34,137 nt of DNA from Bacteroidales bacterium. GTDB lineage: Bacteria; Bacteroidota; Bacteroidia; Bacteroidales; VadinHA17. The stretch is taken from positions 1 to 34,137 of the forward strand of contig DAIDJT010000003.1 in the NCBI GenBank assembly GCA_027451265.1. The letters are read 5' to 3'. Of the stretch, positions 481-8,413 are shown piece by piece; positions within the stretch are counted from its first letter, which is position 1, and every line of letters begins with the position of its first letter. Both the position numbers and the translations under genes were made by a program. The notes under the pieces are model-generated. The model did not search any database, was not told where the DNA came from, and saw only the letters and a list, made by a program, of their open reading frames with translations.

Positions 481-1983
481 TTAATGTACGTGACCCGAAT
501 GTGCATCCAGTGCCCCGGTAGCCTGGGCAAGCTTGATAAGGATTGCACCCTTTGTCACTATGCGTTCATCATCCTTCAGGCCGCCGGTGACCTCCGTCCT
601 GATCCCGTCAGTTGCGCCGGCCTGTATCACCCTCTTCTCAAACCGTTCAGGCGTGACCTGCACAAACACGAAAAAGGCACCCTGCTCTTCAATCAATGCA
701 GTGTTTGGCACTGTAAGTGCTTCGGCATCCGAAACCGTTTTCAGCCAAAGTTCCACGAAGCTGCCCGGAACAAAACCGGCAATATTCTTAACCTGTATGC
801 TGACGGGGATAAGATAACTGTCTGCAGTGGCAGCTTTCCCGACGGAGAGAATTCTTCCTCCGAGCTCTTCGAGTGTATAGGCTTTATTATCGTCCGCACA
901 CTTAATGGTTGCTGTGGATATTGAGTTCAGAAACCGTGCATACCTTTGCTGCACTTCAGCCCGCAGCATGACAGTGCTGTTTTGTGAAATCACCATTAAC
1001 GGCTGCCCGGCCTCAACATATTGCCCGTTCTCAACCATCAGCTGCCTGACAAATCCTGTTATCGGGCTTGTCACAGTCTGCCCTGACCGGCTGAAATTCT
1101 GCTGCAGGTTCTCATAAACAGACCTGGCGTTTTCAAAACGCGTTTTTGCCTCCAGCAACTGCTTGCCAGACACTATTTTATCTGCCGCAAGAATCACCGC
1201 CCGGTCATATTCAGCCTTCGCCTGTTCATAGTTGTTTTGCGCCTCCGCGAACCTGACTCCGGAGTTGTCTTCTGCAAGACCGCTGCCCCTGATGGTAAGC
1301 AATGGCTGGCCGGATGAAACCTTTATCCCCTCCAGGATATTCTTGCCAGTAAAAGAGATTACTCCGGATGACCGTGCTGTCACCACAGATTCATTTCCCT
1401 GTGCGGGCTCCACCAGGGCAGTTGTTTTTATCACCTGGCCGAAGGGCTCACGCGAAGGATTCCCGGTTGAGAAATCTATTTTCCATGACTGCTCCTTTGT
1501 GAATGCAGTTGTGTTTACAGAGGCAGCTGCATTTTTTTCCACATCCTCCTCTGCCTCGCCGGCACCTGCATATACTGTCACCTCGGGGACAATGATCCTT
1601 GACTCTCCCGTTTCGGTTCTGATCAGGAATTCCATAGTTCCTTTCCCGGCTCCGGCCGGGGTCACATCAAAGCTGTAAATCCCCCTGCGGACGGGGTTCT
1701 CAACCGCCTCTTCCACCGTCTGCCCGTTGACTGTCAGTCTTATTGTCACAGAGCCTGATGGAAGTGGCTTGAAACCGGGAAGTGCAGTAAAGTGTGACAG
1801 AACGTTTGATGAGACGCCTGTCACAAAAGGATCAGCTTCAGCGAACAGCTCGAATTCATCACTGTAAACCGTATAATAAACCTTGAGATCTTCGTGGCTT
1901 GTCTCCGGGCTGACTGTTTTGCTGTTATTGCAGGCTGCCAGAAGCAGTAAGATAACAGGGACCATGAAATATTTAAAGTACAT
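481..1983 (-). CDS. RND efflux periplasmic adaptor (CusB/CzcB-like membrane fusion lipoprotein)
   Basis: Lipobox LLLAAC; lipoyl/barrel-sandwich motifs (VTSPITGFVRQLMVENGQYVEAGQPL); alpha-hairpin; C-terminal HSGHVH; 12 bp upstream of the CusA-like gene. Confidence 0.92.
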   Translation of the reverse strand: MYFKYFMVPVILLLLAACNNSKTVSPETSHEDLKVYYTVYSDEFELFAEADPFVTGVSSNVLSHFTALPGFKPLPSGSVTIRLTVNGQTVEEAVENPVRRGIYSFDVTPAGAGKGTMEFLIRTETGESRIIVPEVTVYAGAGEAEEDVEKNAAASVNTTAFTKEQSWKIDFSTGNPSREPFGQVIKTTALVEPAQGNESVVTARSSGVISFTGKNILEGIKVSSGQPLLTIRGSGLAEDNSGVRFAEAQNNYEQAKAEYDRAVILAADKIVSGKQLLEAKTRFENARSVYENLQQNFSRSGQTVTSPITGFVRQLMVENGQYVEAGQPLMVISQNSTVMLRAEVQQRYARFLNSISTATIKCADDNKAYTLEELGGRILSVGKAATADSYLIPVSIQVKNIAGFVPGSFVELWLKTVSDAEALTVPNTALIEEQGAFFVFVQVTPERFEKRVIQAGATDGIRTEVTGGLKDDERIVTKGAILIKLAQATGALDAHSGHVH

Positions 1984-2089
1984 TATAATTACTGTTTAAG
2001 ATTGGATTAAAAAGAATGATATCGCAGAAGTTTAATTTCCTGCAAATTGCGGCTATTCTCGGAATAAAACCTTATACAGTTGGAGGGGC

Positions 2090-2503
2090 TCAAAGCCCTG
2101 ATGAATGTGATGAAAGTGAAGAGTAGAGAAATATAGCCGGAGGCGCTGATAACGAATACAATAACTTAGTTCCCGGCGAGCCGGTTTCATTGGCCTGCAA
2201 GCCAACAAAAAGGTTTTCGCCCCATGGCTGGCTGCACTTTTTATCAATTAATTTCAAACCGGCAGTAAGCTGGTTTGAGCTCACAACCACAGGGTCTTTC
2301 AGAACACAATGACCGTCACCGTCTTCGCCATCGTGATGGTGATTATCGGGGCTGGAACCATGGTCACCTGCAGGCTCCTCACCTGTGCAGTGTGATTTTA
2401 TAAAACAGATCAGGTTACCGTGATGATGATGGGGTACAACAGCATGACCCAGGAACAGTAATCCTGCCATTAATAAAAATGATGCTGCTGTGTGTTTAAT
2501 CAT
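2090..2503 (-). CDS. His/Cys-rich small exported leader protein (DUF6769/DUF2946-like) with a C-terminal RAPP motif interrupted by TGA
   Basis: Hydrophobic N-terminus, then VVPHHHH, HC, HHHD and HC. Reading through the TGA at 2092-2090 gives GL*APPTV then TAA (2074-2072). Sits directly upstream of the metal efflux genes. Confidence 0.75.
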   Translation of the reverse strand: MIKHTAASFLLMAGLLFLGHAVVPHHHHGNLICFIKSHCTGEEPAGDHGSSPDNHHHDGEDGDGHCVLKDPVVVSSNQLTAGLKLIDKKCSQPWGENLFVGLQANETGSPGTKLLYSLSAPPAIFLYSSLSSHSSGL

Positions 2504-2580
2504 AATCTCCCCGGGAACCCGTGCAATTATAACGAAATATCAAATATCATGTTCATTCACTGCCGGCAAATTGCATTCAT

Positions 2581-3234
2581 TCACTGCATTATCAGACCGT
2601 CCTTGATCCTGATCGTCCGGTCAGACATCGATGCCAGTTGCGGGTCATGGGTCACAATGATGAATGTATGCCCGAAAGTGTCACGCAGCCTGAAGAAGAG
2701 ATTGTGAAGCTCCTTCTTGTTTTCGGTGTCAAGGTTACCGGAAGGTTCGTCTGCCAGTATCAGTGACGGACTGTTTACAATAGCCCGTGCCACGGCAACA
2801 CGCTGCTGTTCGCCTCCGCTCAGCTGTGAAGGCTTATGGTCAAGCCTGTCACTCATTCCCAGGAAATCTAGGAGTTCTGTAGCCCTGGCTGCCGCCTCGG
2901 CACGTGATTTCCCCGCAATGAGCGCCGGGATACAAACATTCTCAAGCGCTGTGAACTCAGGAAGCAACTGGTGAAACTGGAAAATAAAGCCGATGTGCTT
3001 ATTCCTGAAGGCAGCCAGGGCCCGCTGTGAAAGCTGCCCGGGATCCTGTCCGTTGATAAGGACCGTCCCTGCATCAGCCCTGTCAAGTGTTCCGATAATC
3101 TGAAGCAGTGTGGTTTTACCGGCGCCGCTGGCCCCGACAATGGCAACCACCTCTTTCTCTTCCACCTCAAGGTTAATGCCTTTGAGCACCCTGAGGTCAC
3201 CGTATGACTTCATTATGCCGGTTGCCCTTATCAT
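2581..3234 (-). CDS. lolD: ABC transporter ATP-binding protein, LolD/MacB-type
   Basis: Walker [26 protein letters not shown], signature [14 protein letters not shown], Walker [13 protein letters not shown]-loop VTHD. The lolD symbol is the best guess. Confidence 0.85.
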
Positions 3235-3593
3235 CTTGATTCCTGGTTTAGGTCGCGTGCCGTATCATTTATCTCATCAGAGAGAGGCGAGGCAGCCTCA
3301 GTAAAGTCCTTCCTCACGCTGTTAGTCACGTCATTGATATCGCGCCTCACCGAATTTGTCACATCATTGATATCGCGCCTTACCGAGCTTGTCACATCAT
3401 TGATATCTTTCCTTATATCCTCGGTACTCTCATCAAACTCCTTCTTTATTTCGTCAGTGGCTTTCCGGACCTCCCGCATCCCTTTGCCCATGGCACGAGC
3501 TATCTCCGGCAGCTTGTCAGCTCCGAAAAGCAGCAGAACCGCAATCAGAATGAAGATTATCTCCTGTCCGCTTATGAATAGCAATGTTCCCAT
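3231..3593 (-). CDS. tatA: Twin-arginine translocase TatA/TatB-family subunit
   Basis: [44 protein letters not shown] (TM helix, FG hinge, amphipathic helix); ATGA overlap with the downstream ATPase gene. Confidence 0.9.
3307..3420 (-). repeat. 33-bp (11-aa) tandem coding repeat in the TatA tail, about 3 copies
   Basis: gtcac(g/a)tcattgatatc at 3325, 3358 and 3391; protein (DINDVT[S/N]SVR[R/K])x3. Confidence 0.9.
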
Positions 3594-6928: not shown

Positions 6929-8413
6929 TTATTCAACCAGTTTTTCGTAGTCGGTATCCAGCGGCTTGCGCGTTATGAAATCATAAAGGGTGAGCGCCCT
7001 CATATTGTAATAGTAGCTCCAGTAATTGTTAAGGGCCTGGATATAATTACGCTTGTTCTGGTCCTTCTTTGTATCTGCATTGTTTAATTCAAGGACATCA
7101 ATCTTTCCTATAAGAAAGCGCTGTTTGGTCACCTCAAACATCTTGGCAGCAACAGTATCAGACTTGGCAGCAATGACAACCTGGTCATCCTGCATGTTGA
7201 ACTGCTGCACATCAAGCAGAAGACTCTGTTCAAAATCGCTTCGCGACTGCTCGACCTGGACACGTGTAAGCTCCTCGCTCGACTTTGCCATCTTGTAACG
7301 GCCGCGCCCCTGTCCCCAGTCAAGTATCGGGAGGGAGAACGAGACCCTGATTGTCTGCTGCTGGTTGGGCTTGTCATAGGCCATGTTGAGCAAAGGGTCC
7401 TGGTCACGCAAACCATATGATGCCGTCAGGTTGGCGTTGAGACCCTTCTCAGCCTTTGCCTGTGCAACAGAACTCTGGGCCTCAACCAGCTGACGCTCCA
7501 TGGCAATCATTTCAGGATTGTTCTGTTCTGCAAGCTTCAGAACCTCACTTACCTCAACCTGAAGATCGGGAATCTTACTCGGGACGAGCAGCTCAAGGCG
7601 GACTGACTGGTTAAACCCAAGGAATGACCTGAGCTTAAGCTCACGGTCACGGAGGTTCATCTCAGACTCATTGATAGCTGTCCCGGCATTGAGATATGAC
7701 AGTTCCATCTGCAGGAGCTCATCTTCCGCGATTGTTCCCAGGTTGTAACGCCCCTTGGCAATCTGATACAGTGTATCAGCATTCTGCATGTTGGTCTCAG
7801 CTATCTCCTTGTTTATCTGTGCAAGCGCCAGGTTGAAGAAGTACTGCACGGCCATCATATGGACATTCTCCACATCCCTCAGGTATGTCTTGCGTGCCTC
7901 CTCATACTTGAGCGGCTCAATCTTCTTCTGCCATCTCAGCTCATTGTACCTGAAGAGTGGCTGTGTCAGCCTGACGTTCAGAGGAGAAGTAATATACCTC
8001 TCGCCTTCTGTCTCGAAGTTCTTCTCATAAGTCATATCAGAGTAAAGCGATATGGAACCGCCAGTAAAACCGATGTTCTGAGCCAGCGAGAGGTTGCCGG
8101 TAGTCTGAAGAACGTTTGTGGAGGCATACTCCCACTGCTGTGACACTGAGTTCCAGACCCTGTTGTAAGCCGTGCTGTAATCAGGCAGGCTGCCCGAAAG
8201 TGAAAGGATCGGCCTGTAGTCTGCTACAAATGTGCGGTACTGCCAGTAACTTGCACGGAAACGGTGCTTGGCAATCAGGGCATTGGGCGACTGCTCCGAC
8301 GCAAGCCTGACAACCTCATCAAGGGTAAGACGCTTTACCTCCTGTGGCATCGCCGGCAGGGCAATGAGTCCTGAAAATAATACTGCCAGTGAAAGTGCTT
8401 TTATGCTTTTCAT
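6929..8413 (-). CDS. TolC-family outer membrane efflux protein
   Basis: Signal peptide, LTLDEVVRLASEQSP start, two OEP repeats (RYNLGTIAEDELLQ / RFLIGKIDVLELNN), SLPILDWG. Confidence 0.93.
   Translation of the reverse strand: MKSIKALSLAVLFSGLIALPAMPQEVKRLTLDEVVRLASEQSPNALIAKHRFRASYWQYRTFVADYRPILSLSGSLPDYSTAYNRVWNSVSQQWEYASTNVLQTTGNLSLAQNIGFTGGSISLYSDMTYEKNFETEGERYITSPLNVRLTQPLFRYNELRWQKKIEPLKYEEARKTYLRDVENVHMMAVQYFFNLALAQINKEIAETNMQNADTLYQIAKGRYNLGTIAEDELLQMELSYLNAGTAINESEMNLRDRELKLRSFLGFNQSVRLELLVPSKIPDLQVEVSEVLKLAEQNNPEMIAMERQLVEAQSSVAQAKAEKGLNANLTASYGLRDQDPLLNMAYDKPNQQQTIRVSFSLPILDWGQGRGRYKMAKSSEELTRVQVEQSRSDFEQSLLLDVQQFNMQDDQVVIAAKSDTVAAKMFEVTKQRFLIGKIDVLELNNADTKKDQNKRNYIQALNNYWSYYYNMRALTLYDFITRKPLDTDYEKLVE

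Follow-up and report, generated by a model that had tools for sequence, protein, structure and literature searches.

A stop codon in place of the conserved arginine of a candidate RAPP arrest module in a DUF6769 leader upstream of a putative Bacteroidales metal efflux operon

RESULTS

The leader gene and its interrupted reading frame

This work describes a short gene that precedes a putative metal efflux operon in a Bacteroidales bacterium of the VadinHA17 lineage (Bacteroidota; GenBank assembly GCA_027451265.1, referred to here as G000). The window analyzed comprises positions 1 to 34,137 of contig DAIDJT010000003.1, and coordinates refer to this 34,137-nucleotide (nt) stretch unless a different contig is named. 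The gene lies on the minus strand, encodes a protein of Pfam family DUF6769, and ends with a TGA at the codon where its relatives encode the arginine of a C-terminal Arg-Ala-Pro-Pro (RAPP) motif. A preliminary description of the window had reported this minus-strand reading, and reverse complementation confirmed both the reading and its coordinates: positions 2101..2072 read TCA GGG CTT TGA GCC CCT CCA ACT GTA TAA, translating as Ser-Gly-Leu-stop-Ala-Pro-Pro-Thr-Val-stop. The features of the leader are as follows.

2090..2503, minus strand: leader open reading frame (ORF) as present in the window, 137 amino acids, DUF6769, ending at the TGA
2072..2503, minus strand: complete leader frame of 143 codons and a TAA, matching relatives of 143-144 amino acids; profile match over positions 1-144 with one TGA inside
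2090..2092, minus strand: TGA replacing the conserved Arg codon of the RAPP module, from direct reading and the codons of relatives
2072..2089, minus strand: cut-off tail, with Ala-Pro-Pro at 2089..2081, Thr-Val at 2080..2075, and TAA at 2074..2072
2092..2093: two adjacent private bases, A A on the plus strand of the window versus G C in other sequences (minus strand, CTT TGA versus CTG CGA)

An R-A/G-P-P/G motif near the C terminus is thus absent from the window form, where the Arg codon is TGA, and present in the full-length form of the same species. The 137-residue protein matches the DUF6769 model (PF20558) over residues 6-56 only, at 28.3 bits against a cutoff of 27, and in a six-frame search the score was 26.8 bits, slightly below that cutoff. 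The same model matches 14 of 14 close homologs (best E value, 6.6e-09), while the NCBIfam models gave no match to the leader protein. In layout, the protein has an N-terminal hydrophobic helix followed by PHHHHGN-ICF-KSHC, HHHD, and C66. The hydrophobic stretch begins after K3, and AlphaFold places a helix at residues 2-22 with a predicted local distance difference test (pLDDT) score of 92-94, suggesting an N-terminal signal or membrane segment. Using 148 sequences, AlphaFold was confident only for this helix and a short hairpin at residues 25-34; the low confidence over the remainder (overall mean pLDDT, 65.8; predicted template modeling score, 0.29) is as expected of a leader peptide.

Conservation of the RAPP module

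A word-indexed search retrieved 16 homologs of 143-171 residues, 15 of which end in GLRAPP plus two or three residues (14 in GLRAPPxV and P0011 in GLRAPPAAV); the remaining homolog, P0007, ends in GLRAPSTA. One of them, P0002, is 143 residues long, is 100% identical over the 137 residues of the window protein, and continues as ...SGLRAPPTV, so that the APP behind the stop is not a chance resemblance. The 90% identity cluster of P0002 holds 11 distinct sequences, among which the window's alone is short and the other 10 all end in GLRAPPTV. The 137-residue form was found on 1 contig and P0002 on 38.

The same picture was obtained from a profile search of 1.84 billion cluster representatives, which yielded 923 proteins at an E value of ≤0.001. 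Motifs were counted in the best 150 of these 923. Within the last 12 residues, 144 of the 150 carry RAPP (131), RGPP (11), or RSPP (2), so relatives do not end at Gly-Leu, the outcome that the preliminary description had named as evidence against a conserved motif. The other 6 have RPPP, KAPP, RAPL, or RVPP endings or are truncated. Of the 144 representatives with the motif, 136 end exactly two residues after it, as do 46 of 60 distinct loci. For 133 representatives both motifs are present, and in most of these the HHH run and the Arg are 108-114 residues apart.

At the nucleotide level, 60 distinct leader 3' ends were derived from 67 loci for a tally of the codon at the Arg position. Aligned with these relatives, which run six residues further and end in GLRAPPxV, the window is the only sequence lacking Arg: CGG occurs 18 times, AGA 11, CGT 10, AGG 7, CGC 7, CGA 6, and TGA once, the last being the window itself, for a total of 59 Arg codons in 60 loci. 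The use of six synonymous Arg codons points to selection on the amino acid. In a set of 61 genomes (G000 and 60 relatives), 18 gave a match, and the inner stop occurs in G000 only, the other 17 encoding Arg.

Conserved columns in an alignment of 148 sequences (∼30% identity) are L18, P24, H25-H28, C33, C66, L68, and G136-L137-R138-(A)-P140-P141, the rest being variable. Conserved Cys and His residues of the leader are H25-H28, C33, C39, and C66, whereas the body between this putative sensor part and the tail shows no conservation and has a disorder prediction. Val is the final residue at 38 of the 60 loci, and TAA is the stop codon at 47. The family is present in Bacteroides thetaiotaomicron, used as a control genome. 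In a phylum-wide draw, the Pfam model detected DUF6769 in 7 of 301 genomes (3 above the cutoff), a figure that is a lower bound rather than a distribution, since the model barely detects the window's subgroup.

A second motif-breaking variant was observed in a sister species, where P0007 (5 member sequences on 2 contigs) ends in GLRAPSTA and the corresponding locus of the same-lineage genome G033 (L005) ends in GLRAPPTA; a Tyr/Cys difference, located 14 residues upstream, further distinguishes the two.

The stop codon is private to one assembly

To place the TGA among sequences of the same species, contigs were drawn from three DNA runs, each belonging to a different study (X1, X2, and X8, out of 14 candidates), and from one RNA library (X15, out of 6 RNA runs), and were aligned to positions 1500..3200. 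All four have G at 2092 and C at 2093 on the plus strand, giving CTG CGA (Leu-Arg), as do three metagenome contigs from the Joint Genome Institute (JGI; L002, L003, and L004; 99.4-99.8% identity). Counted together, the 3 DNA contigs, the RNA-library contig, and the 3 JGI contigs make 7 of 7 same-species sequences with CTG CGA in place of the window's CTT TGA. The RNA-library contigs cover 1894-2146 and 2602-3200 and not the 5' part of the leader; gaps in this coverage prove nothing, and the library may contain DNA. The preliminary description had pointed out that TGA is one base from CGA or AGA. The conspecific codon is indeed CGA, but the actual difference comprises two adjacent bases, the first of which is synonymous.

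Over the 1,701 bases compared with X1, X2, and X8, the window differs only at 1573, 2092, and 2093. Position 1573 is polymorphic among conspecifics (L002 differs and L004 does not); because it varies among the others too, the 2092/2093 pair is the sole change private to the window in 7.5 kb of comparable sequence. All 14 of the best-matching DNA runs have a word share of 0.97 and none of 1.00, from which we infer that none of them carries the window's words at the stop site.

The sequence context of the change is distinctive. Conspecifics read GGGCT[GC]GAGCCC and the window reads GGGCT[TT]GAGCCC, so that the changed bases come after GGC, fall within the loop of an inverted repeat of 5 bp, and have both become identical to the base preceding them. 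According to passages of Nakamura et al. (PMC3141275), sequence-specific errors of Illumina instruments begin after GGC or at inverted repeats; they are consecutive miscalls, mostly equal to the preceding one or two bases, and they yield false single-nucleotide polymorphisms. The assembly consists of 395 contigs at 79.9% completeness, a fragmentation compatible with low sequencing depth.

In RNA form, the Gly-Leu-Arg-Ala-Pro codons fold as a 5-bp hairpin, GGGCU NNN AGCCC (2085-2097, minus strand), with TGA and with CGA alike. This hairpin is probably a by-product of the Gly (GGN) and Pro (CCN) codons, and it may render the site prone to miscalls or mutation.

Two further explanations were examined and rejected. 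A chimeric assembly path from a second template would need another copy of the variant 14-mer, which occurs only once in G000 even with 1 mismatch allowed. An alternative genetic code, a suppressor, or selenocysteine (Sec) insertion is at odds with the role of TGA in this organism, where it closes 472 of 1,083 long frames and is the commonest ordinary stop; no UCA-anticodon or Sec tRNA was found among the 27 tRNAs detected in G000, a result that is weak alone because the genome is only ∼80% complete.

A long-range helix between the leader end and the adaptor start

Downstream of the leader on the same strand lies the gene of a resistance-nodulation-division (RND) periplasmic adaptor. In the window, 88 nt separate the leader from the adaptor ATG, and this spacer ranges from 74 to 123 nt across 47 distinct intergenic regions. 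These 47 spacers remained from the 67 loci after removal of 2 without a downstream ORF, 12 with spacers outside 60-130 nt, and 6 duplicates. The relevant features in the window are the following.

481..1983, minus strand: lipoprotein RND periplasmic adaptor, CzcB/CusB-like, the putative regulated gene (TIGR01730 at 129 bits; HlyD_D23, HlyD_3)
2068..2080, minus strand: 5' strand of the helix, ACUGU.UAAGGUU, covering the final two codons, the stop, and the 6 nt after it, from the minimum free energy (MFE) fold and pair counts
1991..2003, minus strand: 3' strand of the helix, AAUCUUA.ACAGU, located between 8 and 20 nt before the adaptor AUG, from the MFE fold and pair counts
2022..2045, minus strand: inner hairpin within the helix, 8 pairs, 3 of them G-C; terminator-like in a simple scan

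In the MFE fold of the window spacer, 2080..2068 pairs with 2003..1991 (12 pairs) and encloses the hairpin at 2045..2022. The scan that flagged the inner hairpin found 2 terminator-like sites against 0.9 expected. Across the 47 distinct spacers, the MFE fold has at least 6 pairs between the leader end and the start region in 38, typically 13-21. The helix sequence varies between clades while complementarity is retained (e.g., L012, L014, L015, L070, and L071). In a partner-swap test, leader ends bound their own start region at a mean of −10.67 kcal/mol versus −6.74 kcal/mol for swapped partners, a difference reached by 0 of 10,000 permutations.

Covariation was assessed in a MAFFT alignment of 35 of the 47 spacers for a 14-pair helix named by the analyst. 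In this structure, 74.2% of cells are paired, compared with 31-56% when the partner is slid by 1-3 columns, and both partners vary in 11 of the 14 pairs. At most 10 of 100 dinucleotide shuffles reached the pair number of the MFE fold in 26 of the 47 spacers, and the covariation score was 0.214 versus 0.127 for shuffles (reached by 0 of 500), although such shuffle figures overstate the signal because the structure was derived from member sequences and the loci are kin. Support for the helix accordingly consists of single-sequence folds, the partner-swap test, and counts on a named structure. The helix also accounts for the preference for a terminal Val and TAA noted above, as GTT TAA and the next bases pair with TTAAAC before the start. 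Its position relative to a stalled ribosome is compatible with a switch: when the P site holds the first Pro codon, nt +7..+15 correspond to 2080..2072, which hold 8 of the 12 helix pairs.

Operon context

In agreement with the preliminary description, which had linked the gene to efflux, the leader precedes an RND adaptor and a fragment of an RND pump, probably of the CusA/CzcA family. The adaptor scores above the cutoff of TIGR01730, whereas its score against the CzcB/NccB model, 108.9 bits, is below the cutoff of 319. The pump gene is cut by the contig end.

1..468, minus strand: RND pump, N-terminal 156 residues; best match TIGR00914 (CusA/CzcA family), 116.5 bits on the fragment

Among 53 downstream proteins scanned at the related loci, the next gene is an HlyD-type adaptor in 47. 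Upstream of the leader are LolD-like, TatA-like, and SecDF-like genes. A promoter scan gave 2 sigma-70-like matches versus 2.1 expected and hence no evidence of a promoter. Judged by gene order and profile matches, the leader probably heads a CzcBA-type heavy-metal RND efflux operon.

Several further observations were made in the neighborhood and at related loci. No outer-membrane gene lies in the pump operon between leader and adaptor; a TolC-family outer-membrane protein is encoded at 6929-8413 (minus strand), 4.4 kb upstream of the leader and beyond SecDF, TatA, and LolD. The TatA/E-like protein (3231-3593, minus strand; 120 residues) has a C-terminal tail with three near-identical tandem units of ∼11 residues (...DINDVT.SVRR...), which is unusual for TatA. 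The adaptors of L014, L026, L047, L054, L064, L066, L068, and others have His-rich runs such as CHHHDHNHDHDHD right after the lipobox cysteine, probably a metal-binding arm; the window's own adaptor has only a weak version. Compared with JGI contig L004, 37 of 51 BLAST mismatches fall within the first 460 bases of the window, at the 5' end of the CzcA-like pump gene, and the remaining 8 kb are nearly identical; the pump N terminus at 46-460 thus looks recombined or mosaic between strains.

In two genomes of the same order (L020, 1420-2412; L021, 1414-2375), DUF6769-like leaders end in RGPP (NRGPPALV and FRGPPTLV), are followed by a protein of 145-155 residues with a YHS metal-binding domain instead of an adaptor, and have spacers without the helix. 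At L062 (269-1606), the leader ends in GLRAPPAC with a TGA stop, and 51 nt on lies an ORF matching only the last 220 positions of ACR_tran; this operon looks rearranged or decayed.

DISCUSSION

Proposed function of the intact leader and effect of the stop

We propose that the site is the Arg codon of a C-terminal RAPP arrest module in a membrane-targeted, His/Cys-rich DUF6769 leader of CutF/CruR-like design, and we consider this about evenly balanced between right and wrong. That grade covers the best explanation as a whole, i.e., the identity of the leader, the mechanism, and the stop as the likelier artifact. In the intact form, the ribosome would stall while the first Pro codon (2086..2084) is occupied by peptidyl-RAP-tRNA and the next Pro codon by Pro-tRNA. 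The footprint of a ribosome ahead of the P site is ∼15 nt. An arrested ribosome would hence cover the message up to the TAA and sit on the 5' strand of the helix (2080..2068), which would otherwise pair with nt −20..−8 before the adaptor AUG. Because the stalled ribosome occupies this strand, the A/U-rich initiation region of the adaptor would be opened. Metal bound to the already exported PHHHH/Cys segment would prolong the stall, and the pump would be switched on.

If the TGA is real, translation would end three codons short of the stall point, with the P site at Leu137. The front edge of the ribosome would then be at ∼2081, one base short of the helix, and no arrest would occur: the switch would stay shut while the sensor part of the protein remained whole. 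We do not regard the stop as part of the design of the leader; the two-base change occurs in this assembly only. In a more speculative extension, which we regard as doubtful, the TGA is an arrest-dead, separation-of-function allele that locks a start lacking a Shine-Dalgarno sequence; together with the RAPS variant of the sister species, it would mean that wastewater Bacteroidales retune metal efflux by losing or retaining their arrest motifs, with DUF6769 as a switch of this type specific to Bacteroidota and built independently of DUF2946.

Origin of the stop and role of the tail

The preliminary description had offered three readings of the TGA, of which a nonsense allele and a sequencing or assembly error both survive the analysis, whereas UGA readthrough finds no support, with no stop in relatives and no UCA or Sec tRNA. 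We regard a sequence-specific miscall or other artifact, carried into a low-coverage assembly, as slightly more likely than a real allele and put its chance at roughly one-half. Only somewhat less credible is a real, recent allele in the source strain, in which a tandem change of GC to TT removed just the six-residue arrest module and left the pump no longer inducible via the switch; such an allele may reflect neutral drift in a metal-poor reactor, or it may have been selected. Against a real allele, the stop is seen on 1 contig only, compared with 38 for the otherwise identical full-length form, in 0 of 7 conspecific sequences, and in no indexed run at full word share. There are also two adjacent changes, the first synonymous and unnecessary, in a GGC and inverted-repeat context that agrees with a published miscall pattern. 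That the change hits a key codon is no argument, as the site was picked for that reason. The uniqueness of the variant 14-mer in G000 is favorable to a real allele, there being no second copy to cause a chimeric path, and about 4 of the best 150 of the 923 representatives have degraded motifs (KAPP, RAPL, RVPP, and RPPP).

A number of points weigh against our preferred explanation, several of them being equally arguments for a real allele. The sequence-specific error model was described for early Illumina chemistry. Assemblers need several reads to support a path, and short-read assemblers normally follow paths that are seen in several reads. The contig is otherwise clean relative to conspecifics, with only 1573 (itself polymorphic), 2092, and 2093 differing in 1,701 bases; given this base-for-base agreement with widespread conspecific contigs, it is not generally error-ridden. 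Comparable motif loss within a species is illustrated by P0007 (RAPS) versus G033 (RAPP), so real alleles of this kind do occur. As for the mechanism, 8 of the 47 spacers lack the helix pairs in their MFE fold, and RNAalifold on the MAFFT alignment of 35 spacers recovered no long-range helix, its 3 pairs all lying within the Arg-Ala-Pro codons. That metal would prolong the stall is argued from exporter logic and the analogy to CutF. Finally, no published arrest, metal-response, or pump-regulation experiment was found for any DUF6769 protein, in a search that covered some supplements only partly.

Designed recoding, in which UGA acts as a leaky stop, a Sec codon, or a suppressed codon and only some ribosomes reach APP, is highly improbable. 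The frame does stay open for five sense codons and then ends at the family's usual TAA, and the UGA lies within the loop of the small hairpin GGGCU UUG AGCCC; however, the CGA form has this hairpin too, as a consequence of the Gly and Pro codons. Conspecifics carry CGA, and no relative has a stop at this position (0 of 17 genomes and 0 of 59 other distinct loci). The stop and tRNA counts given above for this ∼80% complete genome likewise speak against recoding. Ordinary misreading of UGA inserts Trp. This would not restore stalling, as arrest requires the Arg and, in passages of PMC12992588, all 19 substitutions of the Arg in ApcA are reported to lift arrest.

It is also improbable, though less so, that the RAPP tail is not an arrest module at all. 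DUF6769 would then be an ordinary metal-binding pump partner (CzcI- or CusF-like) with a tail for sorting or docking, and the helix would be an attenuator, a terminator, or a processing site. The terminator-like inner hairpin and the lack of any experiment in print for the family would agree with such a role, as would the CutF-like proteins that work differently in the survey published in mBio in 2023, e.g., CzcI without a proline motif (passages of PMC9973294). On the other side, RAPP and RGPP are the two motifs reported as the most robust arresters and as depleted from proteomes (passages of PMC12992588); the fixed distance from motif to stop is something that an arrest switch needs and a docking peptide does not; the helix begins within the footprint of a stalled ribosome; and the stretch linking sensor and tail lacks conservation, with disorder predicted for it.

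Comparison with known arrest-based switches

In the SecM-secA system of Escherichia coli, a RAGP arrest at the 3' end of the upstream ORF keeps the ribosome on the helix strand that hides the next start. SecM senses secretion activity, not metal, and unmasks a Shine-Dalgarno sequence. To our knowledge, CutF and CruR, two proteobacterial proteins belonging to the same Pfam family, are the only nascent-chain metal sensors shown to work. If our proposal is true, DUF6769 extends the principle to a different family and phylum, to RND metal pumps, and to organisms that start translation without a Shine-Dalgarno sequence, and the conserved helix provides a directly testable wiring diagram. Should the stop be an error, one miscall can hide a regulatory module from gene callers; should it be real, it offers a natural control with the sensor intact and the arrest module gone.

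The closest likeness is to CutF of Rhodobacter capsulatus (cutFOG). CutF is a small exported protein that carries a Cys/His motif for metal binding and, at its C terminus, a proline stalling motif, and its gene immediately precedes one for metal resistance; the intact DUF6769 leader is predicted to share this layout. In CutF, stalling melts a stem-loop covering the next gene's ribosome-binding site, as described in passages of PMC9973294 and bioRxiv 10.1101/2025.02.05.636593. Likewise, an intergenic RNA structure is predicted here to mask the initiation region of the next gene and to be opened by the stalled ribosome; the order metal, stall, gene on holds for CutF and is proposed for DUF6769 from sequence alone. 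The two differ in family and motifs: CutF belongs to DUF2946, with CXXXC and a PPP motif dependent on elongation factor P, whereas the leader described here belongs to DUF6769, with PHHHH, three conserved Cys residues, and a strict GLRAPPxV. What is predicted to be masked here is an A/U-rich leader at −20..−8 with no visible Shine-Dalgarno sequence, compared with a ribosome-binding site in CutF, and the putative regulated gene is an RND adaptor rather than a multicopper oxidase. The survey of CutF-like proteins by Ozturk et al. (2023) contains many Bacteroidota members and HlyD_D23 (CusB/CzcB) neighbors (passages of PMC9973294). The DUF6769 leader has the features by which that survey defines a CutF-like protein, namely, a Sec signal (here a predicted N-terminal hydrophobic helix), a Cys/His motif, a C-terminal proline motif, and a metal-gene neighbor.

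The preliminary description had likened the site to CruR (Bp2923) of Bordetella pertussis, a comparison that is apt in design and does not extend to kinship. Membership of the leader in DUF2946 (PF11162), the family of CruR, was rejected, as only 1 of 14 DUF6769 members matches the model, with an E value of 0.45, and the leader has no CXXC or CXXXC motif, unlike DUF2946 (CruR and CutF, where it lies ∼45 residues from the RAPP). As reported in passages of PMC9426467, RAPP is required in CruR for downstream gene expression, and nonsense and RA-to-AS changes abolish that expression and shut the operon off. Unlike the switch that we propose for DUF6769, CruR is released from its stall by copper and has as its output Rho-dependent termination before an importer gene.

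The candidate arrest module is the one found in ApdA, ApdP, and ApcA, small secreted or membrane proteins that likewise carry it close to the C terminus; the Arg is critical for RAPP-type arrest (passages of PMC10951233). In the portions of this literature available to us, the tested ApdA/ApdP/ApcA-type peptides precede Sec/YidC genes or Streptomyces genes, and no DUF6769 member is among them. DUF6769 proteins with RAPP upstream of RND adaptors do appear in the source data of Fujiwara et al. (2025), in the part available to us (PMC12992588), where the name occurs at least 45 times and that neighbor class comprises 620 RAPP versus 148 control cases. In the accessible main text of the same paper, efflux is never mentioned (0 occurrences), and passages of it do not contain a helix between leader end and adaptor start. 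A literature search for DUF6769 returned, besides PMC12992588, one other paper, on an unrelated topic. This kind of leader is therefore already catalogued in print, and by its sequence DUF6769 is a further member and a candidate arrest leader; the conserved masking helix is the contribution of the present work.

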